Positions 1 to 48,192 of a DNA stretch of 64,000 nt are shown here, in pieces (the first letter of the stretch is position 1; every line of letters starts with the position of its first letter). The DNA is from Dehalococcoidia bacterium. GTDB lineage: Bacteria > Chloroflexota > Dehalococcoidia > SM23-28-2 > RBG-16-64-32. The stretch spans positions 1,859 to 65,858 of the forward strand of contig JAUSFE010000050.1 in the NCBI GenBank assembly GCA_030649945.1, read 5' to 3'. The position numbers and the translations under genes were made by a program. The notes beneath the pieces were generated by a model. It ran no database searches. It saw only the letters and a list, made by a program, of their open reading frames with translations, and was not told the origin of the DNA.

Positions 1-388
1 GCCGGGTGCCCTCACCCCAGATACCTACGGCATCGCCTGCTTCGCGACCAAGTCTTGTGCCGCGCTCCAGTCCCGCCGCGACGCGGCGAGCCCCATGCAG
101 GGCCATGTAGCCAGTACTTATCCGGTCGAACAACCCACCGGGTATGAACTGAGCGACCTCGTGGCGAACGGAGGCCCAAGTGTCCGAGGAGAAGTCCGCA
201 CCGACGACTCTCCCAGCCTTACGTACTAGCGCAGCTGCAAGCACGTTCTGGCGGAGTTCGGAGGCTAACGCTCTGACGCAACCTATCCTCGTCCGCTCGA
301 CGCGTCTGCGCTCGATCTCAAGCGCTCCCACAAACCCGCCGACAACACCCAACAAAGCCGAACCAAACGCAATGGTGGCCGTGTCCAT
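1..388 (-). CDS. partial CDS (N-terminal part; gene continues past the window start) of a hypothetical membrane-anchored protein
   Basis: Manual minus-strand translation from ATG (complement 386-388): MDTATIAFGSALLGVVGGFVGALEIERRRVERTRIGCVRALASELRQ...; hydrophobic N-terminus. Its ATG overlaps the hspR stop (TGATG). Absent from the ORF track because it is truncated by the window edge. Confidence 0.35.
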   Translation of the reverse strand, partial: MDTATIAFGSALLGVVGGFVGALEIERRRVERTRIGCVRALASELRQNVLAAALVRKAGRVVGADFSSDTWASVRHEVAQFIPGGLFDRISTGYMALHGARRVAAGLERGTRLGREAGDAVGIWGEGTR

Positions 389-738
389 CAGTCTGTCTCC
401 CTCCCTTTTACCGCCGGCAGCACGCGGTCGCGGTACGCCTGTAGCTCCGCGCGCAGGTGCGCCATCTCGCGCTCCATCTGGCGCAGGCGCTCGTTCATGC
501 GCATCACGACCTCGGCGCCGGCCAGGTTCAGGCCCAAGTCCTGCATCAGGCGCTGGATGTAGCGCAGACGGTCGACATCGGACTGCGAGTAGAGGCGGAC
601 GCGCCCGCGGGAGCGGCTGGGGCTGATGAGGCCCTGGCGCTCGTAATTGCGCAGGCTCTGGGCGTGCATGCCGACCATGCGGGCGGCCACGCTGATGACG
701 TAGCAGGGCTCGTGGTCCGGGTTGCGTTCGTCTACCAT
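388..738 (-). CDS. hspR: MerR-family heat-shock transcriptional repressor HspR
   Basis: 116 aa. N-terminal MerR HTH (YVISVAARMVGMHAQSLRNYERQGLISPSRSRGRVRLYSQSDVDRLRYIQRL). Lies immediately downstream of dnaJ on the same strand, the classic dnaJ-hspR arrangement. Confidence 0.85.
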   Translation of the reverse strand: MVDERNPDHEPCYVISVAARMVGMHAQSLRNYERQGLISPSRSRGRVRLYSQSDVDRLRYIQRLMQDLGLNLAGAEVVMRMNERLRQMEREMAHLRAELQAYRDRVLPAVKGRETD

Positions 739-1378
739 GTCACGTTACCGCCGGTGTTCCTGTTTGGCGCGCCGTCGTTCCGGGCCGAGGCGCCGTAGGG
801 GGCGCAGCACTCGGGTAACGTGGTCGCGCCGGGGGATGGCCGGCTCCCGATTGCTGAGGCGGCTGCAACCGTTGGGCTGGCGTGCTGCGCCCCTACGCCC
901 CGCCCTGCCCTGACGCCGCGCCATACACGCATCGCGGTTACGCCGGCTCGTTCGTTCATCATGTCACATTACCGCCGGTGTTCCTGTTTGGCGTGGCGTC
1001 GTTCCGGGGCGGGTCACCGTAGGGCGCAGCACGAGGGCCGCGACGGTCGCGCCGGCGGGCGGCTGGCTTCCGGTTGCTGAGGCGGCTGCAACCGTTAGGC
1101 TCGCGTGCTGCGCCCCTACGCCCCGCCCTGCCCTCACGCCGTGCCATACACGCATCGCGGTCATGCCGGCTCGTTCGTTCATCATGTCACATTACCGCCG
1201 GTGTTCCTGTTTGGCGTGGCGTCGTTCCGCGGCGGGTCACCGTAGGGCGCAGCACGAGGGCCGCGCCGGGGGGGCTGGCTTCCGGTTGCTGAGGCGGCTG
1301 CAACCGTTAGGCTCGCGTGCTGCGCCCCTACGCCCCGCCCTGCCCTCACGCCGTGCCATACACGCATCGCGGTCATGC
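736..1378. repeat. tandem triplication (about 222 bp unit x3) between hspR and dnaJ. Each unit carries the hspR RBS/start region and a long REP-like inverted repeat (GTAGGGCGCAGCACG...CGTGCTGCGCCCCTAC)
   Basis: Units start near 736, 958 and 1181 with CATGTCAC(A/G)TTACCGCCGGTGTTCCTGTTTGGCG. Copies are more than 90% identical. The ORF-track hits 732..962, 964..1185 and 1182..1376 (MMNERAG...) are repeat-borne pseudo-starts. Confidence 0.85.
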
Positions 1379-2449
1379 CTTCGCTCCTGCGGGGGCCTTG
1401 CGGCGCTCCTCGCGTAGCTGCTCGAAGAGCGCGCGCTCGCGGTCCGACAGCTTTTCCGGGAGGACGACGCGGATGCGGGCGTAGAGGTCGCCGGACGGAC
1501 GGCCGCCCGCCGCGCGCGTCTGGGGCTGGGCGTGGCCCCTGGGCTTGCCGTCCAGGCGGGGCATGCCGAGGCCGGCCAGGCGGATGCTGCGGCCGTTCTG
1601 GGTGAGGGGCGGGATGGTGACGGCGATGCGCTTGCCGGCCAGCGTCTCGATGTGCACCTCGCCGCCGAGGACGGCGTCCTCCAGCGGCACCGGCACGTCT
1701 GTGTAGAGGTCGTCGCCCCTGCGCTCGAAGCGCGGGTGCGGGCGCACGCGCACGACGACGTAGAGGTCGCCGCGGGGGCCGGCCCTTCCAGGAGAAGGAC
1801 TGCCCTCGCCGGCCAGGCGCACGCGGGTGCCGTCACGGGCGCCGCGGGGGATGTTTACCTCCAGACGGCGGGGGCGCAGGACGGCGCCCTGTCCCTGGCA
1901 GACGTGGCAGACGGCGCCGGCCACCTGGCCGCTGCCGCCGCAAGTTGGGCACGGCTCCTCGCCCTGGAGCTCCAGGGCGCGGGCGGCGCCGTGGTGGGCC
2001 TCCTCGAGGGTGATCTCGGCGGCATACTCCACGTTCTGGCCGCGCAGGGGCCCGCGGCGGCCGACGGACGGGCGGCCGCCGCTCCCGGCGAAGACGTTGC
2101 CGAAGATGCTCTCGAAGCCACCGGCGCCGGCGCGGCCGACGAGGTCGCCGAGGTCGTTCAGGTTGAACTGGAAGGTCTGCCCTCCGCCTGAGGCGGACTG
2201 GGCGCGCGCCTTCTCGAAGGCCTCAGCCTGCTCCCAGCGCTCGCCGTAGCGGTCGTACTTGGCGCGCTTCTGGGCGTCGGAGAGCACCTCGTAGGCGCGG
2301 GTGATGGCCTTGAAGCGGGCTTCCGCGCCCTTGTCGCCCGGGTTGACGTCCGGGTGATGCTTGCGGGCGAGCTTGCGGTACGCCTGCTTGACCTCCTTGT
2401 CGGAGGCGCTGCGCTTGAGGCCGAGAATCTCGTAGTAGTCTTTCGCCAT
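1373..2449 (-). CDS. dnaJ: molecular chaperone DnaJ
   Basis: 358 aa. J-domain with HPD motif ([37 protein letters not shown]), G/F-rich linker, and CxxCxGxG zinc-finger repeats ([16 protein letters not shown]). Confidence 0.9.
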
Positions 2450-2580
2450 CAGACGTTTTCCGCGAGGCCTGGCGGTGGGCCCGCGCCGGCAGCCGGCGCA
2501 CGGGCGCCGCTGCGCCTGGATACAATTCTAGAGGGAAATGGGAGAGAAGTCAAAGGGGCCGGTGAATAAACATGATACGC

Positions 2581-2605
2581 GTGCTGTCAAGAGACTTGAC
2601 AGCAC
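2581..2605. promoter_or_regulatory. perfect 11-3-11 palindrome GTGCTGTCAAG-AGA-CTTGACAGCAC in the divergent dnaJ / DUF1326 promoter region; candidate operator (HspR/HAIR-like or other)
   Basis: Seen directly in the sequence. Each arm contains a TTGACA hexamer. Located 130 bp upstream of the dnaJ start. Confidence 0.35.
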
Positions 2606-2702
2606 GCCGGTTGGCCGGGGTGCCGTATTGACATCGTCCCCGCCCGCCAGCATCATGGGTGCGTCGTCTCGGATTCAAGCAGCGGTAGACAAGGAGGAAG
2701 GG

Positions 2703-3305
2703 ATGCCCTGGAACATTAGCGGCCAGTACATGGAGACTTGCAACTGCGACTACCTTTGCCCGTGCCCCCTTACCGGCATGGCGGAGACCACGCACGGCTA
2801 CTGCATCTTTGCGATGGCGTTCCGCACTGATAAGGGGGAGTACAACGGCATCCCGCTGGACGGCGTCAAGTTCGTCATCATCGGGCGCACGCCGGAGGCC
2901 ATGGGCGCCGGCAACTGGCAGGTGGGGTTGCTTGTGGACGCGGGCGCGAACCAGGCCCAGCAGGATTCGCTGGCGCAGATCGTGGGCGGGCAGGCCGGCG
3001 GCCCGATGGCGAACATCGCGCCGCTGATCGGCCAGTTCATGGGCGTCGAGGCGCGGCCGATCGAGTTCGAAGGCAGCGGCAGCAAGTGGCAGGTCAAGGT
3101 CGCCGGCAGGCTGGACCAGGCGCTGGAGGGCGCTACGGGGCTTGGCGGCGAGAACCTCTACCTGGACAACATGGGCCACCCGGTGGCGAACCGCCTGGCG
3201 CTGGCACGCGCGCAGCACAGCCGCCTGCACGCCTTCGGCATCGACTGGGAGGACGACAGCGGCCGTAACAACGGCCACTTCGCACCGTTCGACTGGCGCG
3301 GCTAG
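2703..3305 (+). CDS. DUF1326 family protein
   Basis: Internal ATG with a strong RBS (AAGGAGGAAGGG) at 2703. N-terminus MPWNISGQYMETCNCDYLCPCP matches the DUF1326 signature (NCxCxxxCPC). The ORF-track start at 2538 is an upstream extension through the promoter region. Confidence 0.75.
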   Translation: MPWNISGQYMETCNCDYLCPCPLTGMAETTHGYCIFAMAFRTDKGEYNGIPLDGVKFVIIGRTPEAMGAGNWQVGLLVDAGANQAQQDSLAQIVGGQAGGPMANIAPLIGQFMGVEARPIEFEGSGSKWQVKVAGRLDQALEGATGLGGENLYLDNMGHPVANRLALARAQHSRLHAFGIDWEDDSGRNNGHFAPFDWRG

Positions 3306-3420
3306 GGCCACGTTAGCGGGGCGGACACACGGATCCGCCCCTACGACCGGGCGGGCGCGGGCGGACACACGGGTCCGCCCCTACGACGGGCGGGCGCGGG
3401 CGGACACGCGGGTCCGCCCC
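3306..3420. terminator. three tandem copies of an about 39-bp GC-rich hairpin unit (GGGCGGACACACGGATCCGCCCCTACGAC) between convergent genes; likely bidirectional terminator array
   Basis: Direct tandem repeats seen in the sequence. Each unit forms the stem GGGCGGA...TCCGCCC. Lies between the DUF1326 stop (3305) and the GH15 stop (3420). Confidence 0.5.
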
Positions 3421-5237
3421 TACGCCGTGATGACCTTGCCCAGCTCGACGCTCTTGAGGGCGCGGTCAAGGTTCCTCGCGGTGTGGATGAGCGCTATGTG
3501 GGTGAACGCCTGCGGGTAGTTCCCCAGGTAATCGCCGGTCTCCGGGTCCAGCATCTCGGAGTAGAGGCCCACGTGGTTGCCCAGGCTGAGGACGCGCTCG
3601 AAGAGGTCGCGCGCCTCCTGCAGGCGTCCGGCGGCCACCAGGCTCCCGGCCAGCCAGAGGCTGCACATGGTGAAGGTGCCCTCGCGGCCCGGCAGCCCAT
3701 CGTCGGCGAGCTCGGGGAGGTAGCGATAGACGAGGCCGTCCACGCCAAGCTCCTTCCACACGGCGTCTATCGTCGCGTTCATGCGCGGGTCGTCAGCAGC
3801 CAGGAAGCCGACCATGGGGATGAAGAGCAGGCTGGCGTCCAGGCCGACGCCGCCGTAGTGCTGAATGAAGGAGCCGCGCTTGGCGTTCCAGCCGTGGGTC
3901 AGAATGTCCTGGCGGATCTCCTCGCGGGCCTTGCGCCAGCCGTCGAAGTCCACCGGCCGGCGCAGCGCTCGGGCCAGCCGCAGGCCGCGGTCCACTGCCA
4001 CCCAGGCCATGAGCTTGGAGTAGGTGAAGTGGCGGGGCCCCGTGCGGAACTCCCAGATGCCCAGGTCCGGTTCCCGCCAGCGGCGGACGGCGGCCTCCAC
4101 CAGGCAGCGCGCCACGTTCCACAGCCTCTCGTCGATGGCGCCGCCGACCCGCTGGTAGGAGTCCAGCGCCAGCATGATCTCGCCGAAGACGTCCAGCTGG
4201 AACTGATGGAAGGCGGCGTTGCCCACGCGTACCGGCCGCGAGGCGCGGTACCCCTCCAGGTGGTCAAGGGTATACTCCTCCAGCTCGTGGCCGTTCCGCC
4301 CCTCGATGCTGTACAGCGAGTGCAGGTCGCCGTTGCTCTCGCAGATCGCCAGGTTGGCGAGCCAGTCAACGAAGGGCTTGGTGTAGGTGGTGTGGCCCAG
4401 GCGGTGGAAGACGTCCATGGTGAAGGCGGCGTCGCGCAGCCAGGAGAAGCGGTAGTCCCAGTTGCGCACGCCGCCGATGCGCTCCGGCAGCGACGTGGTG
4501 ACGGCGGCGCAGACGGTGCCCGAGGGGACGTACAGGAGCAGGTGCAGCGCCAGCATGGAGCGCTTCACCACCTGCTCCCAGCGTCCGGTATAACGCCAGT
4601 CCTGCGAGACGAAGCGCCAGAACGCCTCCGTCTGGCCCAGGCGGCCGTGGACGTCGTAGCCGTCAACCGGCGGCGGCGAGTCCTGCCCCCACGCGACCAC
4701 GAACGCGGCCGATTCGCCCTGCCGTACCGTGAACCGCGCGCGGGCGGCGCCTTCCGCGGCCTCCAGATCGACCGCGGACGACAGCGAAAGGCAGCTGCGG
4801 CCGTGACGGGCCACGGCCACGCGGCTTTGAACGGAGACCTCCGTGCGGCCGCGGGCGTAGTCCAGGCGCGGCTGGAAGTGCAGGTCCATCTCCACGGCGC
4901 CCCGCTCGCAGCGCAGGAGGCGGATGAGGCTGCTTTCGCGCTGAGTGATCTGCTCGCCGACGGGCATGAAGTCGGTAAGCGTGGCGCCGCCGGAGGGGGT
5001 CTCGAACTCCGTGACCAGGACGTTGCTGTCAGGCAGGTAGCGCTGGCGGGACGTGAAGTCTCCGGGCGGGCTGACCTGGAAACGCCCGCCGGCGCCGTCG
5101 TCCAGAATGGCGGCGAAGACGCTGGGAGAATCGAAGCGCGGGAAGCACAGCCAGTCGATGGAGGCGTCAGAGCCGACGAGCGCGGCGGAATGCATATCGC
5201 CGATCACGCCGTAATCGTTAATACGCTTATACGCCAT
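3420..5237 (-). CDS. glycoside hydrolase family 15 protein (glucoamylase / trehalase-like)
   Basis: Typical GH15 N-terminus from the internal Met (MAYKRINDYGVIGDMHSAALVGSDASIDWLCFPRFDSPSVFAA). (alpha/alpha)6-barrel region motifs (WEFRTGPRHFTYSKLMAWVA). The ORF-track start at 5333 is probably a 5' extension. Confidence 0.85.
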   Translation of the reverse strand: MAYKRINDYGVIGDMHSAALVGSDASIDWLCFPRFDSPSVFAAILDDGAGGRFQVSPPGDFTSRQRYLPDSNVLVTEFETPSGGATLTDFMPVGEQITQRESSLIRLLRCERGAVEMDLHFQPRLDYARGRTEVSVQSRVAVARHGRSCLSLSSAVDLEAAEGAARARFTVRQGESAAFVVAWGQDSPPPVDGYDVHGRLGQTEAFWRFVSQDWRYTGRWEQVVKRSMLALHLLLYVPSGTVCAAVTTSLPERIGGVRNWDYRFSWLRDAAFTMDVFHRLGHTTYTKPFVDWLANLAICESNGDLHSLYSIEGRNGHELEEYTLDHLEGYRASRPVRVGNAAFHQFQLDVFGEIMLALDSYQRVGGAIDERLWNVARCLVEAAVRRWREPDLGIWEFRTGPRHFTYSKLMAWVAVDRGLRLARALRRPVDFDGWRKAREEIRQDILTHGWNAKRGSFIQHYGGVGLDASLLFIPMVGFLAADDPRMNATIDAVWKELGVDGLVYRYLPELADDGLPGREGTFTMCSLWLAGSLVAAGRLQEARDLFERVLSLGNHVGLYSEMLDPETGDYLGNYPQAFTHIALIHTARNLDRALKSVELGKVITA

Positions 5238-5365
5238 TGGCACCCCTGGGCTGGGAGAAGCCCGCCTCATCTCCACTATAGCGAACGCCGCCGCCGTCTG
5301 GGAAGTTAAGGGGTGGTGAACGTTGGGTGTCATCGCGGCCGGCTCCGCCGAAGGCGGACGGTGCT

Positions 5366-6448
5366 ATGATCGGGAAAGTGGAAACTGGAATGTGGGGCAT
5401 AGCCGGCAACGAAAGGGCCGTAGCGGCGGTGGCGCGGGCCGTGGCGGACGGCTCCTGTGCGCATGCCTACCTGTTCGTGGGCCCGGAGCGTGTTGGCAAG
5501 GCGGCCACGGCGGGCAGGCTGGCGCAGGCGGTAAACTGCGTGGGTGCCGCCGTTCCCTGCCTCGACTGCCGCGCCTGTACGCGCATTGGCAACGGGATAC
5601 ATGCCGATGTGCAGACGGTGACGGTGGAGCCGGGGGAAGACGGCGCGCAGCGCACGGCCATCAGCGTGGAGCAGGTGCGCGAGATTGAGCGGGCGGTGGC
5701 CCTCAACCCCTTCGAGGGGAAGACCCGCGTGGTGATCCTGGACCCGGCGGACGAGATGTCGCCGCAGGCCCAGAACGCCTTTTTGAAGACGCTGGAAGAG
5801 CCGCCGCCGCACGTCATATTCGTGCTCATCGCCCGGCGGGAGGAGCGGCTGCTGGAGACGGTGCGCTCCCGCTGCCGGCGCATCGGCTTCAGCCTGGCGC
5901 CGGTGGCGGTGATCGAGCGGGTGCTGCTGGAGAGGGAGGCGCCGCCGGAGCAGGCGCGGCTGCTGGCCAGGCTCTCGCGGGGGCGCGCCGGCTGGGCGCT
6001 GGAGATGGCGAGCGACGCCCAGGCGGCCGGGCGCCGGCGGGAGGCGCTGGAGTCCGCGCGCGCCCTGGCGCGCATGACGGTGGCGCAGCGCCTGGACCTG
6101 GCGGAGCGGCTCTCGGATGACTTCAAGCGGGACCGGGAGGGCGTGTTAACGCTGCTGGCGCAGTGGCAGGACTGGTGGCGGGACGTGCTGCTGACCGGGT
6201 GCGGAGCGGAAGAGGGCATGGCGAACCTGGACATGGCGGAGGAGCTGCGGGAGGACGCCGCCCGGCACGGCGCGCGGGAGGCGGCGGCGTTCGTGCAGGC
6301 GCTGCGGGAGGCGCGGCAGCAGCTGGAGGAGAACGTGCAATCACGCGTGGCGCTGGAGGCGCTGGTGCTGCAGGCACCGACGGCGGCCCTGCCTGCCGGA
6401 CAGGCAGGCCCGGGCGCGGCGGTGGCGGCGGAGTTGTCCACTTCTTAG
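5366..6448 (+). CDS. holB: DNA polymerase III subunit delta-prime
   Basis: AAA+ clamp-loader motifs: HAYLFVGPERVGKAATA, the zinc module CLDCRACTRIGNGIHADV, Walker B VVILDPADEMS, sensor SRC. Start taken at MIGKVETG; the ORF-track start at 5327 is also possible. Confidence 0.8.
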   Translation: MIGKVETGMWGIAGNERAVAAVARAVADGSCAHAYLFVGPERVGKAATAGRLAQAVNCVGAAVPCLDCRACTRIGNGIHADVQTVTVEPGEDGAQRTAISVEQVREIERAVALNPFEGKTRVVILDPADEMSPQAQNAFLKTLEEPPPHVIFVLIARREERLLETVRSRCRRIGFSLAPVAVIERVLLEREAPPEQARLLARLSRGRAGWALEMASDAQAAGRRREALESARALARMTVAQRLDLAERLSDDFKRDREGVLTLLAQWQDWWRDVLLTGCGAEEGMANLDMAEELREDAARHGAREAAAFVQALREARQQLEENVQSRVALEALVLQAPTAALPAGQAGPGAAVAAELSTS

Positions 6449-15311: not shown

Positions 15312-15449
15312 TCAGACGGCGAGCCGCCACCTGCCCTTGAGCATTCTGCGCTTAAGGACCGCTTTCCCTTTCTTAGTGCTGTTCCGGGCCATGAAGCCGT
15401 GGACGCGCTTGCGGCGGCGCGCTTTCGGCTGGTAAGTGCGCTTGGGCAA
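15312..15449 (-). CDS. rpmH: 50S ribosomal protein L34
   Basis: Not in the ORF track (TTG start, 45 aa). Manual translation: (M)[44 protein letters not shown], with RBS GGAGG 8 nt upstream. Confidence 0.85.
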
Positions 15450-16555: not shown

Positions 16556-19792
<3,237 letters not shown>

Positions 19793-20664: not shown

Positions 20665-20990
20665 CGGGGTGCTGAAGAACGAGTCCTACAAACTTTTGTG
20701 TCTTCGTGTCTTCGTGGTGAGAATTCCCAGGGATCAACACGAAGGCACTACGACACAAGAGGGGTTCCTTATACAAGGGCTGGCTCTCCCCCGCCCCGCC
20801 CCGGTTGGACGCACCTGAAGGTACCTCCCTACTTTGGTGCCTTTGTGTCTTCGTGTCTTCGTGGTGAGAACTCCCAGGGATCAACACGAAGGCACTAAGA
20901 CACAATAGGGGTTCCTCATCCAAGGGCTGGGTCTCCCCCGCCCCGCCTCGGTTGGAGGCACCTGAAGGTACCTCCCTACGGGAATCCGGC
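20661..20990. repeat. two tandem copies of an about 140-bp MITE-like unit (families R7 GGTGCCTTTGTGTCTTCGTG and R3 CACCTGAAGGTACCTCCCTAC), preceded by an R2 terminal repeat (CTAGCGGGGTGCTGAAGAACGAG)
   Basis: Direct repeat copies near 20690-20830 and 20830-20975. Each has an internal inverted repeat GTGTCTTCGTG...CACGAAGGCAC. Confidence 0.8.
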
Positions 20991-22584: not shown

Positions 22585-23490
22585 CTACGACGGCACCCAT
22601 TCATCGCCGGTGCGGGCGATGCGGCCCTCCGTCTCCAGCTTCGCGAGGTGGGCTTCGATCTGGCGCCGGGCCATGGGGAGGATGCGCCTGTCCAGCTCCG
22701 GGTAGATGGCGGAAAGCAGCGCCTGCGGGGTGCGCTTGCCGTCCGCGAGCAGGTGCAGTATCTGAGCCTCGCGCTCGTGCCGGTGGTCGATCAACTCCTG
22801 CAGCTTGGCCGGGACGTCATGCACCGCCTGACCATGGCCGGGGAGCATGAGTGCGCAGTCGTAGGACTTCAGCCGTTCGAGCGACTGCAGGTAGAGCGCC
22901 ATGTCGCCGTGGGGCGGGGGGGAGATGGCGACGGTGCCCAGGCCCAGGGCGGTATCGCCGGTGAAGAGGGCGCGCTCCTGCGGGATGTAGATGCAGACGG
23001 AGCCCAGGGTGTGGCCGGGCGTGTGCACCACCTCCAGGGTCAGCGCGCCCACCTGAAAGGTGTCGCCGTCGTTGACCAGGACCTCTGGCGCCGCCTCCGC
23101 GGCCTGCTGACGGAAGCGCTGGATCTGCTCGGCGATCGCCTTCTGATCGCCCGGCACCTCGATGTCCTGGGGAATATCGCTCTGCCAGTCGCGCAGGAAC
23201 TTCTCCTCCGCCGGGTGCAGGGTCACCTGCGCGCCGGTGGCCTCGCGGATCTGCTTGGCCCCGCTGGCGTGGTCGAAGTGGTGGTGCGTGAGGATGATGT
23301 AGCGGACACGAACGTCCGGATGCCCCTTCAGGAAGTCGAGCCGCTCGCGGACGGACTTCTCGTCGCCGAAGCCGCTGTCGATGAGCGCGCCCTCGCCGCC
23401 GTCGCGCACCAGGAAGACGTTGGGGGACTGCGGGCCGGTGTAGAAGGCCGGCTGCGCGGGGAGGGAGTGGATGCGGGGCGTTATCTCCAT
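22585..23490 (-). CDS. MBL-fold metallo-hydrolase with C-terminal winged-helix-like extension
   Basis: THHHFDH motif (ILTHHHFDHASG), HTPGHT; 301 aa. Confidence 0.8.
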   Translation of the reverse strand: MEITPRIHSLPAQPAFYTGPQSPNVFLVRDGGEGALIDSGFGDEKSVRERLDFLKGHPDVRVRYIILTHHHFDHASGAKQIREATGAQVTLHPAEEKFLRDWQSDIPQDIEVPGDQKAIAEQIQRFRQQAAEAAPEVLVNDGDTFQVGALTLEVVHTPGHTLGSVCIYIPQERALFTGDTALGLGTVAISPPPHGDMALYLQSLERLKSYDCALMLPGHGQAVHDVPAKLQELIDHRHEREAQILHLLADGKRTPQALLSAIYPELDRRILPMARRQIEAHLAKLETEGRIARTGDEWVPS

Positions 23491-38245: not shown

Positions 38246-39592
38246 ATGGAACAACAGATCCGCTTCTGCACAACCTCCGACGGGGTGCGCATCGCCTACG
38301 CCACTGCAGGCCAGGGCCCGCCGCTGGTGCTGATCACCGCTTGGGTGGGTCACCTTCAGTTCGAATGGAGCCACGCCGAGACCAAGGCGTTCTACGAAGG
38401 CTTGGCGAACGGGCGGCTACTCGTTCGCTTTGACAAGCGTGGCACCGGCCTAAGCGACAGGCAGGCAGAAGACTTCTCCGTAGAGGCGCGCCTGCGCGAT
38501 CTGGAGGCGGTGGTCGATGCCCTGCGCCTGAAACGCTTTGCCCTCATGGGCTTTTCCGAGAGCGGGCCCACGGCCATAATCTACGCAGCCCGCCATCCTG
38601 AGCGGGTGACGAACCTCGTCATCTATGGCTCCTACCACCGCTGGCCGTACCCTGCAGGGGCCGCCAATCCCGTCATGGCCCTGATCCGCTCGCAGTGGGG
38701 CATGGGATCAGCGGCGCTCTCTGCCATCTTCGTTCCCTCCGGCGATCCCGCCCAGGTAGCGTGGTGGACGGAGTTGCAGCGGGTCTCGGCCTCGCCAGAG
38801 AGTGCTGCCTCTATCTTCGAAGTGAACACCGGGCTTGATGTGACCTCCGTTCTCAGTGACATCCGGGCCCCGGCCCTCGTCATTCACCGGAACAACGATA
38901 CTGTCTGCCCCTTCGATGTCGCTCGCGAGATGGCTGCCCTCATCCCGGCTGCCCGTTTCGAGCCCCTGGAAGGCGATATCCATCCCCCCATGTTCGGCGA
39001 CACTGCCGCCGTCCTCAACGCCGTAGATTCCCTGCTGCCCAGCGGCGCGCGCCGCAGGCAGGCCGTCACCGCGGGCACGCCCTCCGGCCTCGTCACCATT
39101 CTCTACACCGACATGGAGGGCTCTACCCCCCTGACCCAGCGACTGGGCGACGCCAAAGCGCAGGAGGTGCTGCGCGCGCACAACACCATCGTCCGCGAGG
39201 CCCTCAAGGCGCACGGCGGGTCCGAGATCAAGCACACCGGCGACGGCGTCATGGCCTCCTTCCCAACGGCCTCCGGCGCGCTGGAGTGCGCCATCGCCGT
39301 GCAGCAGGGCTTCGCCGCGCACAACGAGTCGGCTGAGACGCCCGTCCGCGTGCGCATCGGCCTGAACGCGGGCGAGCCGGTGGCGGAGGAAGAGGACCTG
39401 TTCGGCACGGCCGTGCAGCTGGCGGCGCGCGTCTGCGCCAGGGCGGAGCCGGGGCAGGTCCTGGCCTCGAACGTGGTGCGTGAGCTGGCCGCCGGCAAGG
39501 GGTTCCTGTTCTCCGACCAGGGCGACGTGGTCCTGCGCGGCTTCGAGGATCCCGTGCGGCTGTACGAGGTGCGCTGGCAAGCGGCGGGCTGA
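38246..39592 (+). CDS. alpha/beta-hydrolase + class III cyclase fusion, copy B
   Basis: Starts 2 nt after the copy A stop. Hydrolase elbow GFSESG. The CHD region is about 95% identical to copy A (LYTDMEGSTPLTQRLGDAKAQEVLRAHNTIVREALKAHGGSEIKHTGDGVMASF...). Confidence 0.8.
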   Translation: MEQQIRFCTTSDGVRIAYATAGQGPPLVLITAWVGHLQFEWSHAETKAFYEGLANGRLLVRFDKRGTGLSDRQAEDFSVEARLRDLEAVVDALRLKRFALMGFSESGPTAIIYAARHPERVTNLVIYGSYHRWPYPAGAANPVMALIRSQWGMGSAALSAIFVPSGDPAQVAWWTELQRVSASPESAASIFEVNTGLDVTSVLSDIRAPALVIHRNNDTVCPFDVAREMAALIPAARFEPLEGDIHPPMFGDTAAVLNAVDSLLPSGARRRQAVTAGTPSGLVTILYTDMEGSTPLTQRLGDAKAQEVLRAHNTIVREALKAHGGSEIKHTGDGVMASFPTASGALECAIAVQQGFAAHNESAETPVRVRIGLNAGEPVAEEEDLFGTAVQLAARVCARAEPGQVLASNVVRELAAGKGFLFSDQGDVVLRGFEDPVRLYEVRWQAAG

Positions 39593-41028
39593 TGGACGCG
39601 CCGCCCATCCAGTACGCGAAGACCGCCGACGGCGTCAGCATCGCCTTCTGGACGCTCGGCGAAGGCCCCCCGCTCGTGATCCTGCCCAACCTGACCGCCA
39701 GTCACGTGCAGGTGGAGTGGGAGTGGGACGTCCGCCGGATCGCCTACCAGCGGCTGGCGCAGCACGCCACGGTCATCCGCTACGATTGTCGCGGCCTGGG
39801 GCTGTCTCAGCGCGATTGCCCCGACTTCTCCGCCGAGGCAGGGGGCCTCGACCTGGAGGCCGTCGTTGACCGCCTCGGCCTGGAGCGCTTCGCCATCTAC
39901 GGCTCCGACTCCACGGGCGACGTAACTTTCGCCTTCCCCGCCGGCCATCCGGAGCGGGTGAGTCACTTGATCATCGGCGTGCCGCATATCCAGCGCGGCT
40001 TCCGCCGCCGCCTGGCCGCCGTTCAGCCGCTCATTGATCAGGACTGGGAGCTGTTCATCGAAATCTTTCCGCGGCTCGCGGGGGGTTGGGACAGCCCCCA
40101 GGCGGCCCAGGTGCCGGCTGTGATGATGGGTACGCACACGCCCTCTAGCTTCCGCTCGGCTCTCGACGCGATGGCCGCCTTCTCGCCGGAGCCCTACCTG
40201 GCGGCTATTCAGGCGCCGTCGTTGATCATGCACCCGCTGCAGAGCGGCCGGGACAACCGGACAGCGCGAGTGCTGGCGGGCGCTATCGCCGGCGCTCACA
40301 TGGTAGGAATCCCGGGCTGGCCGCTCGCCTCAACACTCAACGAGACGGCCGTTGCGGCCATCCTGGACTTCATCAATACCGCGCCGGCCGCGCCGGGCCA
40401 CGCGATCCCCGCGCCGCAGATAGACATCAGCGCCGTCCGCACCATCGTCTTCACCGATGTCGAAGGCTCCACGGCGCTCAATGAGCGGCTCGGCGACGAG
40501 GGCGCCCGGGAGGTCCTGCGCGAGCACGAGCGACTGACGCGCGAGGCGCTCGCGTCGCACGGCGGCTCCGAGGTGAAGGCGATGGGCGACGGCTTCATGG
40601 CCTGGTTCCCATCGGCGACGCGCGCTGTGGAGTGCGCCATCGCCTTACAGCAAGCGTTTGACGAACGTAATCGGAAGGTAGGGGCGCAGCAACATGAGCC
40701 AAGTAGGAAGGATATCGAATCGTCTTCCGATGTTGCTGCGCCCCTACGCACCGCCTCCCGGCCACGCCTCGACACGCCCGAACCGATCCGCGTCCGTATC
40801 GGCATCAACGCCGGGGAGCCAATTGCCGAAGGAGACGACCTCTTCGGCGCATCGGTGATCACGAGCGCCCGCATCACCGCGCAGGCGAAGGGCGGCCAGA
40901 TCCTGGCTTCGGACGTGGTGCGCCAGCTCCTCGCCGGCAAGGGGTTCCTCTTCTCCGACCAGGGCGACGTCGTCCTGCGCGGCTTCGAGGACCCCGTGCG
41001 CCTGTACGAGGTGCGCTGGCGCCAGTAG
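39592..41028 (+). CDS. alpha/beta-hydrolase + class III cyclase fusion, copy C (carries an in-frame REP-element insertion in the CHD)
   Basis: ATG overlaps the copy B stop (TGATG). CHD motifs FTDVEGST, EVKAMGDGFMAWF, GINAGEP. The hydrolase GxSxG motif is degenerate (YGSDSTG). Extra 30 aa (KVGAQQHEPSRKDIESSSDVAAPLRTASRPRLDTPEP) relative to A/B/D. Confidence 0.8.
   Translation: MDAPPIQYAKTADGVSIAFWTLGEGPPLVILPNLTASHVQVEWEWDVRRIAYQRLAQHATVIRYDCRGLGLSQRDCPDFSAEAGGLDLEAVVDRLGLERFAIYGSDSTGDVTFAFPAGHPERVSHLIIGVPHIQRGFRRRLAAVQPLIDQDWELFIEIFPRLAGGWDSPQAAQVPAVMMGTHTPSSFRSALDAMAAFSPEPYLAAIQAPSLIMHPLQSGRDNRTARVLAGAIAGAHMVGIPGWPLASTLNETAVAAILDFINTAPAAPGHAIPAPQIDISAVRTIVFTDVEGSTALNERLGDEGAREVLREHERLTREALASHGGSEVKAMGDGFMAWFPSATRAVECAIALQQAFDERNRKVGAQQHEPSRKDIESSSDVAAPLRTASRPRLDTPEPIRVRIGINAGEPIAEGDDLFGASVITSARITAQAKGGQILASDVVRQLLAGKGFLFSDQGDVVLRGFEDPVRLYEVRWRQ
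40683..40752. mobile_element. REP-like palindromic element (GTAGGGGCGCAGCA...TGCTGCGCCCCTAC, long loop) inserted in-frame inside cyclase copy C
   Basis: Same palindrome arms as the intergenic REP copies at 19843, 22568, 43255 etc. Replaces the short ESAETP linker present in copies A and B. Confidence 0.7.
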
Positions 41029-43067: not shown

Positions 43068-43301
43068 GCGCAGCTCCGGCGTCGCCCCCCACCTCCGCCC
43101 CGCTGGAAGCCTGAAGGCATCCGCTACGTTCGCCGGCGGCAACGCGACCGCCCCGCCGGCGCGCGGCCGTCACGCCCGGAAACGCCGTAGGGGCGAACGG
43201 CGTTCGCCCAGAAACGCCGGACGGCCAAACGCGGTTCGCCCACACAAACGCCGTAGGGGCGCAGCATGCTGCGCCCCTACGTTCGTGTCGCGAGTCTCGC
43301 G

Positions 43302-44930
<1,629 letters not shown>

Positions 44931-45026: not shown

Positions 45027-45368
45027 CTAGGCCAGCTTGGCCAGGACGTCGGACTCCTTGAGGATCATGTAGTCTTCCTCGTCGCCGAAGACGCCGCGGG
45101 GGACGTCCTGGCCGCTGTACTTGGCGTAGAGGACGCGGTCCCCGACCTTGAGGTCGATGATGACGCGCTTGCCGTTGTCGTCCAGACGGCCGGGGCCGAC
45201 GGCGATCACCTGGCCCAGCTGCGGCTTCTCGCGGGCGGTGTCGGGGATGACGAGGCCGCTGGCGCGCACCTCGTCCTGGCGGGTCTGTTTCACGACGACA
45301 CGGTCGCCCAGGGGTACGACCCTGGGTGCAGCCGCGCGGGCGGGCTTGCTCTTGGTGGCGGTAGCCAT
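45027..45368 (-). CDS. groES: co-chaperonin GroES
   Basis: 113 aa; PLGDRVVVK...GLVIPDTAREKPQ.GQVIAVG is the canonical GroES sequence. Confidence 0.95.
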   Translation of the reverse strand: MATATKSKPARAAAPRVVPLGDRVVVKQTRQDEVRASGLVIPDTAREKPQLGQVIAVGPGRLDDNGKRVIIDLKVGDRVLYAKYSGQDVPRGVFGDEEDYMILKESDVLAKLA

Positions 45369-47487: not shown

Positions 47488-48192
47488 CTAACCGCCCAAC
47501 TGGACGGCCGCGCCGGGCGCCGGACACCCCGCCGCCTGGCTGACGGGCAGGTCTACCAGGTCTCGGGCGGTCTTCTGGGCGTCGCCGATCGTGACGCCGT
47601 TCTGGCAGTCCAGGTCGCCCCAGAGGCGGGACGTGCCGTCCACCGTCACTGCCGCCCCGGGCGCCGGGCAGCCAGGGCCCTGGGTGATGGGGATGTCTAC
47701 CAGGTCGCGGGCGATCTTCTGGGCGTCGCCGATGGTGATGCCGCTCTGGCAGTCGAAATCGCCCCAGAGGCGGCCGGCGGGCGTCGCCGTAGGTCCGGCC
47801 GTGGGGCTCGGCGCCGTCGTTGGGCTGGGGCTCGGCCCAGCGGGGAAGTCCGCCGCATCGCCGGGCCAGGTGTGGGCGTTTATCTCGGCGATGTTGGTGG
47901 CGCCGTCGCCGTCAGAGTCCAGGTTCTCCACCGCTGTCAACGCCGGATCGATACCGAGACCGATGTGGCCCTTGACGGCATCGCCATAAGTGTTCCAGTC
48001 GCCCGTGTCACCGGAGACATGGCAGGCGTCGCAACTGTTTAGCTTGGTACCGGTGAGGTTGTACTTGTTGACGAAAGCGGTCCTGTAGCTGCCCAAGCCC
48101 AAGACGGAGGATCCCGTCAGCAACGCCGCCGTGACTACGACTCCCGCCACCACCAGCAAGACAGCGAGACGACCTCGGTTCGTGGTCATATC
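47488..48192 (-). CDS. secreted protein with one CxxCH motif and three dockerin/EF-hand-like Ca-binding repeats
   Basis: Signal/TM MTTNRGRLAVLLVVAGVVVTAALL. CDACH. DSDGDGATNIAEI. Two repeats of GD(F/L)DCQ.G(I/V)TIGDAQK.ARDLVD. Confidence 0.6.
   Translation of the reverse strand, partial: DMTTNRGRLAVLLVVAGVVVTAALLTGSSVLGLGSYRTAFVNKYNLTGTKLNSCDACHVSGDTGDWNTYGDAVKGHIGLGIDPALTAVENLDSDGDGATNIAEINAHTWPGDAADFPAGPSPSPTTAPSPTAGPTATPAGRLWGDFDCQSGITIGDAQKIARDLVDIPITQGPGCPAPGAAVTVDGTSRLWGDLDCQNGVTIGDAQKTARDLVDLPVSQAAGCPAPGAAVQLGG

Follow-up and report, generated by a model that had tools for sequence, protein, structure and literature searches.

A tandemly triplicated, palindrome-bearing junction between dnaJ and hspR in an uncultured Dehalococcoidia bacterium

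We describe a tandem array that lies between a dnaJ-family co-chaperone gene and hspR, the gene of a MerR-family heat-shock repressor, in a stretch of 64,000 nucleotides from a metagenome-assembled genome (MAG) of the Dehalococcoidia. The whole stretch is referred to here as the window, and dnaJ, the array and hspR are all read on its minus strand. The dnaJ gene (1373–2449) codes for 358 amino acids with a J domain, a shortened CXXCXGXG zinc finger and DnaJ_C (Pfam DnaJ and DnaJ_C), and its product also matches the NCBIfam DnaJ models, but under their equivalog cut-off. The hspR gene (388–738, 116 amino acids, Pfam MerR_1) passes the NCBIfam HspR equivalog NF047375, with 113 bits against a cut-off of 105. 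We considered a pair of the CbpA/CbpM type and rejected it, since the score of the MerR protein is above the HspR equivalog cut-off and CbpA scores below the DnaJ models. Both proteins are present in identical form at the NCBI (MDO8615152.1 for DnaJ and MDO8615151.1 for HspR, from a Dehalococcoidia MAG contig of 84,887 nt), and their consecutive accession numbers indicate that no coding sequence was annotated there between the two genes. Between them the entire dnaJ-hspR spacer is present three times in tandem, as non-coding sequence. Tandem Repeats Finder reports a single array at 725–1379 (period 223, 3.0 copies, 90% matches, score 994), and a separate repeat search of the window recovers the same three copies together with inverted repeats inside the units. 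A preliminary description, made from the letters alone, had already noticed three copies of a unit of about 222 bp at this place; the repeat holds, and the size has to be corrected to a period of 223 and units of 212, 223 and 225 nt.

Along the transcript the order is dnaJ (2449 to 1373), unit A, unit B, unit C and hspR (738 to 388). Unit A, which adjoins dnaJ, covers 1379–1168 (212 nt) and opens with GGCATGA, i.e., the last dnaJ codon and the stop; the middle unit B covers 1167–945 (223 nt), and unit C, adjoining hspR, runs from 944 to about 720 (about 225 nt), its 3' end being the real hspR start with some six codons. Each unit contains the dnaJ stop (GGCATGA, changed by mutation to GGCGTAA in unit C), a hairpin, the hspR leader, an ATG and about six codons. 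Since the last codon and stop of dnaJ are carried along, a point missed in the preliminary description, the unit is the complete inter-gene spacer plus both gene ends. At the 3' end of every unit GGCGGTAAYGTGAC-ATG is followed by about six codons resembling the hspR start, and the start context CCGGCGGTAAYGTGACATG occurs three times (1201–1183, 978–960 and 754–736), as expected from the earlier claim that each unit has an hspR-like start. Only the third copy goes on into the hspR coding sequence (MVDERNPDHEPCYVIS...), and the other two are decoy starts that read MMNERAG..., again in agreement with what had been noticed. At the join between units (...ATGATGAACGAACGAGCC/GGCATGACC...) hspR codon 7 is followed by the last dnaJ codon, with only 2–3 nt of microhomology (...GAGCC/GGCATGA...).

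The three copies are not equally similar. Units A and B share 99.5% identity outside an 11-nt deletion in the hairpin loop of A relative to B, and unit C shows 87–89% identity to either of them, with 22–28 substitutions. The longest exact repeat within the array is 107 nt. The whole unit is unique in the 64 kb: a BLAST search with unit B returned the three local copies and otherwise only short matches to the hairpin arms. The arms resemble a repetitive extragenic palindrome (REP), and examples of the unit parts outside the REP are AACGGTTGCAGCCGCCTCAGCAA and CCAAACAGGAACACCGGCGG.

The inverted repeat is present in all three units, with GTAG-headed arms of 15–16 nt (GTAGGGGCGCAGCACG and CGTGCTGCGCCCTAC in transcript sense). 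The hairpin of unit A is located at 1242–1331 (arms 1242–1256 and 1316–1331, loop 59 nt), that of unit B at 1019–1119 (arms 1019–1033 and 1104–1119, loop 70 nt) and that of unit C at 795–896 (arms 795–810 and 882–896, loop 71 nt); a loop of about 75 nt had been given before, so the repeat stands and its loop is shorter. A GTAG head is reportedly a hallmark of REPs. The arms belong to a REP-like palindrome family that is scattered through the window, and the whole unit does not. The 14-mer GTAGGGGCGCAGCA (allowing up to two mismatches) has 14 matches in the window against 1.5 expected, and GTAGGGGC heads number 24 where about 6 are expected, spread over more than 12 sites of the 64 kb and in some cases inside open reading frames (ORFs), which bears out the REP-like character first attributed to the hairpin. 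These heads form several flavours of palindrome, including perfect ones of 26–28 nt such as the 28-mer GTAGGGGCGCAGCATGCTGCGCCCCTAC at 43253–43280. Within the array the arms and their 59–71-nt spacers fold as one hairpin and a single arm is not itself palindromic; judged from the sequence, the hairpin looks like a single 28-nt palindrome (compare 43253–43280) split by an insert, and not like a doublet. No match to a REP-associated tyrosine transposase (RAYT, a Y1 transposase) was obtained among the ten small ORFs tested within the window, and an Rfam scan of positions 1–6000 at E ≤ 1 gave no match in the array, its sole match being a chance-level one at 5099–5252. A dispersed miniature inverted-repeat transposable element was rejected as a description of the unit for this window, only the arms recurring elsewhere.

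Other members of the palindrome family were found in a variety of contexts. A REP-type hairpin at 40678–40747 on the plus strand (GTAGGGGCGCAGCAACAT...ATGTTGCTGCGCCCCTAC, fold z = -6.5) lies in frame inside a 478-aa ORF (39592–41028) whose C-terminal part, by eye, is like a putative nucleotide cyclase domain; it has longer arms and a different insert of 34 nt, and adds about 24 residues (VGAQQHEPSRKDIESSSDVAAPLR) to the ORF. The perfect 28-nt palindrome GTAGGGGCGCTTCGCGAAGCGCCCCTAC at 17222–17249 on the plus strand is likewise in frame, in a 1078-aa ORF (16556–19792) with a normal coding signature (GC3 0.91). In two places the TAG of the GTAG head is the stop codon of the adjoining ORF, at 22585–22588 on the minus strand (ORF 22585–23490) and at 41025–41028 on the plus strand (ORF 39592–41028). 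Another REP flavour (GTAGGGGCGGACCCGTGTGTCCGCCC) is repeated as 2.7 copies of a 39-nt unit at 3319–3424, between a GH15-type glycosidase gene and an ORF divergent from dnaJ, and a palindrome cluster at 43173–43280 (32-nt period, 2.7 copies, plus a perfect 28-mer) is found just downstream of ORF 43302–44930, probably groEL by its position and size, which stands beside a Cpn10/GroES gene (45027–45368). Two further tandem duplications, both near-exact, are located at 20695–20979 (147 nt, 1.9 copies, 94%) and 47507–47773 (144 nt, 1.9 copies, 84%).

As the source is a contig from a MAG, one has to consider whether the metagenome assembler expanded a spacer present once or joined reads wrongly. In the Logan assembly of SRR13727527 there is a contig with an identical hspR and 36 nt of upstream sequence specific to unit C, and the contig ends there, inside the unit, so that this other assembly broke at the array. 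The same contig confirms, on the other hand, the unit-C-specific sequence adjoining hspR. An artefact of this kind is unlikely because the copies differ from one another by substitutions and indels, where artefactual expansion would give identical copies, and because the 107-nt exact repeat can be resolved with k ≥ 109 or with 150-nt reads; altogether we consider this explanation very improbable. The array may nevertheless hold further A/B-like copies that were collapsed. Metagenome contigs were scanned for exact matches to a loop motif and to a leader/start motif, with no match in either scan, and the comparison within the species comprises one genome.

The history of the junction can be followed in relatives, for which we gathered 80 loci encoding DnaJ relatives plus seven more through protein look-ups (designated here by L numbers). 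In 56 related Chloroflexota loci hspR is directly downstream of dnaJ. The dnaJ stop overlaps the hspR start by -1 or -4 in nine of the loci (L004, L006, L009, L010, L012, L013, L017, L018 and L020) and precedes it by +1 to +4 nt in three others (L007, L011 and L021). In L007 and L018 dnaJ ends with GGAGCGAA(G/A)GCATGA and HspR starts with MNER, and the dnaJ end of the window is the same (GGAGCGAAGGCATGA). The decoy MMNER matches the HspR N-termini of L007, L018 and L082, and the working copy in the window reads MVDER; the decoys thus keep the ancestral hspR start better than the copy in use. Because about a dozen relatives have overlapping genes or genes within 4 nt, and because the dnaJ end and HspR start have counterparts in relatives, the array sits at a formerly overlapping and translationally coupled junction.

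One relative, L003 (MAG JBGPMY01), is a different species that has the gene order GH15-dnaJ-hspR in common with the window (70% identity for GH15 and 78% for HspR). Its spacer, a single copy of 187 nt, shares the REP head and the GTGACATGG start context with the units, and its flanks outside the REP resemble those of unit C, the most similar of the three, beyond chance (P = 0.0014 and 0.006). The simplest history is that of an operon junction first invaded and then twice duplicated. In the ancestral state of this Chloroflexota clade the dnaJ stop overlapped or abutted the hspR start; a REP-type palindrome with its flanks then expanded the junction to about 190 nt, the single-copy homologue surviving in L003; and the spacer as a whole, with the last dnaJ codon at one end and hspR as far as about codon 7 at the other, was later duplicated head-to-tail at the join with 2–3 nt of microhomology. 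The first duplication is old, as the identity of C to A and B suggests, and the second recent, with the near identity of A and B and an 11-nt slippage deletion.

One result weighs against this history. Two loci that are closer to the window by protein identity than L003, L082 and L083 (GH15 76–81%, HspR 83%), have unrelated spacers of 101 and 130 nt with other palindromic repeats, and an ancestral spacer would therefore need either two replacements or a mobile element. The latter could be a low-copy element of some 190–223 nt resembling the interspersed repetitive units of mycobacteria (MIRUs), which would target stop/start overlaps, bring a coupled ORF and amplify in tandem. MIRUs do behave in this way (PMC12548453), the L003 spacer is homologous at the same junction including the flanks outside the REP when those of the protein-closer L082 and L083 are not, and different palindromic repeats occupy the same junction in L082, L083, L086 and L088. 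Still, the part of the unit outside the REP has no second copy in the 64-kb window or in the other loci (L001–L081, in which only L001 and L003 matched), the exact-match metagenome scans for two unit motifs were empty, and the unit boundaries are copied gene ends (the dnaJ stop and hspR codons 1–7), as local duplication predicts. A mobile element thus seems to us improbable, and the account of a duplicated REP-bearing junction, as regards both structure and evolution, is one in which we have high confidence.

Some other features of the relatives deserve mention. A gene for an HtrA-like serine protease (trypsin and PDZ domains) is located between dnaJ and hspR in nine or more loci, a dnaJ-htrA-hspR variant of the heat-shock operon that we list for L002, L005, L008, L014, L019, L022, L023, L027, L031, L084 and L086; in L084 both junctions are -4 overlaps. 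Palindromic families unrelated to the one described here are found around dnaJ in L082 (3480–3900 and 5024–5124), L083 (2087–2216), L086 (1606–1761) and L088 (2275–2431), and upstream of dnaJ in L082 the sequence repeats, by eye, about three times with a period of roughly 125 nt. The inserts at the dnaJ 3' junction of these relatives are each crossed by an ORF coupled to the dnaJ stop through ATGA, GTGA or TAGATG.

In the window itself an overlapping chain of reading frames, which the preliminary description had also missed, runs through all three units. The dnaJ stop TGA (1375–1373) overlaps an ATG (1376–1374) from which ORF_A (1182–1376, 64 codons) is read, with AGGAG 7 nt upstream of the ATGA overlap, and its TGA overlaps the following ATG in turn (ATGA, 1185–1182). 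At this first decoy hspR start begins ORF_B (964–1185, 73 codons, MMNERAGMTAM...), whose TGA stands 1 nt before the next ATG (TGAcATG); from there, the second decoy start, ORF_C (732–962, 76 codons) extends to a TAG that overlaps hspR codons 2–3 (ATGgTAG). The chain dnaJ-ATGA-ORF_A-ATGA-ORF_B-TGAcATG-ORF_C-ATGgTAG-hspR is unbroken.

One explanation of such frames would be that the units encode real small proteins of 64–76 aa, and in its favor the frames are open, start with ATG and, for ORF_A, have the AGGAG 7 nt upstream. However, the GC content at codon positions 1/2/3 is 0.69/0.71/0.71 in ORF_A and flat at about 0.7 throughout the relay frames, when the real genes here (dnaJ, hspR and GH15) have 0.72/0.41–0.52/0.91. 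None of the three ORFs matched Pfam, a protein search with ORF_B among 5.8 billion proteins found no homologue, and the NCBI annotation has no coding sequence at the array. In addition, units A and B are put out of frame with each other by the 11-nt indel, and as a result their C-terminal halves differ completely. From the flat composition and the lack of Pfam matches and homologues we conclude that the relay frames are not protein genes, and their being so is hardly credible.

The frames could have a different use. If the array is co-transcribed with dnaJ and hspR, ribosomes finishing dnaJ would re-initiate at the overlapping ATG, cross the hairpin, stop at or next to the following ATG and repeat the process as far as hspR. 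By such stepwise re-initiation the 640 nt would stay translated, the hairpins would be opened and the hspR start would be supplied with ribosomes, avoiding polarity, and it would fit both the unfolding and the re-initiation models of translational coupling (reviewed in PMC12548453). Taken alone the relay chain is not compelling, and the comparative picture is stronger. Counting as a bridging ORF any whose start is placed between -6 and +12 relative to the dnaJ stop and whose end is no more than 12 nt from the hspR ATG, we found one in seven (L003, L016, L036, L046, L050, L082 and L083) of the 13 relatives with dnaJ-hspR spacers of 55–700 nt. Dinucleotide shuffles lead one to expect 2.3 (P about 0.0009), or 3.2 when 14 nt are fixed at each spacer end (P about 0.002). 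At the 11 other same-strand junctions of the window with spacers of 55–700 nt there was no bridging ORF (0/11). Besides, in L086 a called ORF of 51 aa bridges dnaJ and htrA with -4 overlaps at both ends, and in L088 an ATGA-coupled ORF follows dnaJ and runs off the contig end.

A number of results count against the relay. The probabilities of the chain in shuffled sequence are 0.26, 0.06 and 0.05 per step, and the units are copies and not independent trials; most of each unit is open in two of its three frames; and each ATG has stops in every one of the three frames no more than 12 nt upstream, which makes termination close to it automatic. The loci compared for bridging frames share ancestry, hence are not independent either, and their hspR starts were assigned by a simple rule of our own. 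The energy of Shine-Dalgarno pairing does not separate the ORF_A start from that of hspR (-6.6 vs. -6.4 kcal/mol). Nor is the predicted structure exceptional: the whole array, the single hairpins and unit C have folding energies of z = -0.4 to -1.5 with respect to dinucleotide shuffles (68–71% G+C), and an alignment fold of only four sequences, the units plus L003, has an unfavourable net covariation term (+2.12). In favor of the relay there is a predicted basal stem in which the dnaJ-stop region (GCAUGACCGC) would pair with a stretch of 10 nt immediately 5' of the following AUG (GCGGUAAUGU), and the single A-U to G-C double change that it shows between units A/B and C/L003 is thin evidence. 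The inserted segment had been called structured RNA, an overstatement in the light of the shuffles, and a reading as exceptionally structured RNA was dropped with all energies within about 1.5 standard deviations of them.

Many of these results would suit a neutral, unstable minisatellite, generated by slippage or unequal recombination and with no regulatory effect, in which the translation of hspR begins independently at the gene's own start and a G+C content of 70% leaves frames open by accident. Open frames are indeed common at this composition, one step of the chain has a sizeable chance probability, fold energies are ordinary, the relay ORFs have no coding signature, and the window has other tandem duplications (3319–3424, 20695–20979, 43173–43261 and 47507–47773). 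What speaks against neutrality is the enrichment of bridging frames across relatives, over either shuffled expectation, together with their absence at the other junctions of the window; the 11–13% divergence of the oldest copy in an array that has not been lost and so has been at least tolerated in the long term; and the dozen or so relatives that keep both genes overlapping or no more than 4 nt apart, which argues that coupling matters. The minisatellite is in our opinion rather unlikely, although to be taken seriously. The translational relay through the array we advance only tentatively, as a possibility on the doubtful side, and the combined statement of structure, origin and relay is one towards which we lean slightly. 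The recurrence of bridging frames is the sole part that a specialist might find mildly surprising.

The signals around the array are consistent with one transcript. A promoter-like site (TTGACT-17-TAGAAT, minus strand, 2553–2525) with 10 of 12 consensus matches is found upstream of dnaJ, 0.2 such sites being expected in shuffles; it is the only one on the dnaJ strand and is likely to be, as far as sequence can tell, the start of a dnaJ-array-hspR transcript. Within the array no promoter-like site was found, and terminator-like sites (a G+C-rich hairpin plus a T-run) were absent from 300–2800 on either strand. With hspR next to dnaJ in 56 related Chloroflexota loci, this agrees with the earlier remark that dnaJ and hspR should be one operon. 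The hspR stop overlaps the start of the next same-strand ORF (TGATG, 386–390, minus strand), which implies that the operon goes on past hspR; in L001 (387–902) this ORF has 171 aa and no Pfam domain. The dnaK and grpE genes do not adjoin dnaJ-hspR here.

With regard to operators, neither the array nor the surroundings of dnaJ gave a match with three mismatches or fewer to the HspR-associated inverted repeat (HAIR, CTTGAGT-N7-ACTCAAG). Of the HAIR-like matches in the window the best one, CTTGAGCATTCTGCGCTTAAG at 15336–15356 on the plus strand, has 3 mismatches and belongs to a chance-level count (3 vs. 0.9 expected); the stretch of about 1.8 kb around it has no confident ORF and precedes the 1078-aa ORF. 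Just upstream of the dnaJ promoter-like site stands a perfect palindrome, GTGCTGTCAAG-tct-CTTGACAGCAC at 2579–2603 (minus strand), a candidate operator unlike the canonical HAIR consensus.

A co-transcribed array could also act on the message as REPs do, whether it is translated or not. The hairpins would then be partial, Rho-assisted terminators and barriers to 3' exonucleases, by which dnaJ mRNA is stabilised and read-through into hspR attenuated. Every unit does have a REP-like hairpin with a G+C-rich stem of 15–16 bp and, in the 3' half of the hairpin, a stretch with more C than G (C/G 1.4–1.6), and in E. coli REP325 limits read-through and stabilises the upstream message, with expression of tandem pairs biased upstream (bioRxiv 10.64898/2026.03.23.713779). 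Yet no hairpin is followed by a T-run, the C/G profile used to look for Rho loading sites is no higher in the array than inside the dnaJ coding sequence, and translation of the relay frames would block the loading of Rho. As an explanation of the array we find this unlikely.

HspR is the repressor of the heat-shock regulon, and its production normally stands in a fixed ratio to that of a chaperone gene of the same operon. An array at the coupling junction could shift the HspR:chaperone proportion without touching either promoter or protein. Under the relay each step and each hairpin would cost yield, and the prediction is of less HspR per DnaJ, with looser coupling than in the relatives where the genes overlap. 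REP-type stabilisation of the upstream message could be an additional effect (bioRxiv 10.64898/2026.03.23.713779), and copy number a possible tuning knob. An effect on hspR expression is something that we infer from the layout, and both the attenuation of hspR and the copy-number-variable regulation suggested in the preliminary description would be plausible by analogy. A broader version would be that the clade tolerates palindromes at the dnaJ/hspR junction only with an open relay frame that keeps the coupling, in a MIRU-like manner arisen independently in a phylum far from that of the mycobacteria, with copy number (one in L003, three here) setting the HspR:DnaJ ratio and the set-point of the heat-shock feedback; this is speculative and we think it quite unlikely. 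Were the relay to work, it would show how bacteria absorb selfish palindromic repeats in packed operons without polar effects, and the mycobacterial MIRU trick would be more general. Were it to fail, the array would be one more tandem REP cluster, of use as a strain-typing marker and a known type of trouble spot for short-read assembly.

We have compared the array with the known systems that it resembles. By anatomy the closest are the tandem REP doublets forming hairpins (REPINs) or bacterial interspersed mosaic elements (BIMEs) of Pseudomonas fluorescens SBW25 and E. coli, which have conserved inverted arms some 16 nt long, set apart by a spacer of about 35–110 nt with little conservation, form a long hairpin and occur in ordered head-to-tail clusters of up to five copies whose origin is unexplained (PMC3337134). 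The array has similar arms (15–16 nt) and spacers (59–71 nt), three copies and an arm motif that is scattered. In contrast to REPIN clusters, its unit takes in the upstream gene's stop as well as the start and some six codons of the downstream one, and the inclusion of these gene ends points to the junction having been duplicated as a segment. At other places in the window the motif consists of a single 28-nt palindrome, and the arms in the array look like one such palindrome split and not like a doublet. A further difference is that no RAYT appeared among the ten small ORFs tested, and the host is an uncultured member of the Chloroflexota (Dehalococcoidia) represented by a MAG.

By the function proposed, the closest system would be that of the MIRUs, as the array is in tandem between operon genes and the frames in its units have starts and stops that overlap or abut those of their neighbors. 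MIRUs occur at a density of about 1 per 100 kb; they reportedly have no long hairpin and are scattered at about 40 loci. They are inserted at start codons and carry an ORF that is coupled at -4 spacing (PMC12548453), and those of senX3-regX3 in Mycobacterium tuberculosis, which are 53–77 bp long with reported promoter activity, form two or three tandem units within one operon, the copy number depending on the strain (PMC12548453; PMC4213456). The unit here is larger (212–225 nt), contains a REP hairpin and has no promoter-like site that we could see, and it is present at one locus in 64 kb, which at the density of MIRUs is a weak test.

In actinobacteria the dnaK-grpE-dnaJ-hspR operon has HAIR operators, and the repressor is made from a heat-shock transcript under its own control. 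Here too hspR is directly downstream of a dnaJ-family gene, but the operon comprises dnaJ, hspR and a further downstream gene, dnaK and grpE do not adjoin, there is no canonical HAIR near dnaJ or in the array, and 640 nt of array separate the two genes. In function, the REP325 element of E. coli (yjdMN) is comparable, a REP hairpin between co-transcribed genes whose attenuating effect on the downstream gene is the one that the preliminary description had proposed for the array, and where tandem gene pairs contain REPs, the upstream gene is favored in expression (bioRxiv 10.64898/2026.03.23.713779). The E. coli REPs are, however, in untranslated spacers, whereas open frames cross the hairpins here, and the sequences are unrelated. 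Intrinsic terminators, HAIR operators, curated RNA families and sets of small protein genes are classes to which the array does not belong. It is a real and rather old tandem triplication of a REP-bearing operon junction, akin to the known tandem REPIN clusters and to MIRU-like variable-number tandem repeats, and harbored by an uncultured member of the Chloroflexota.

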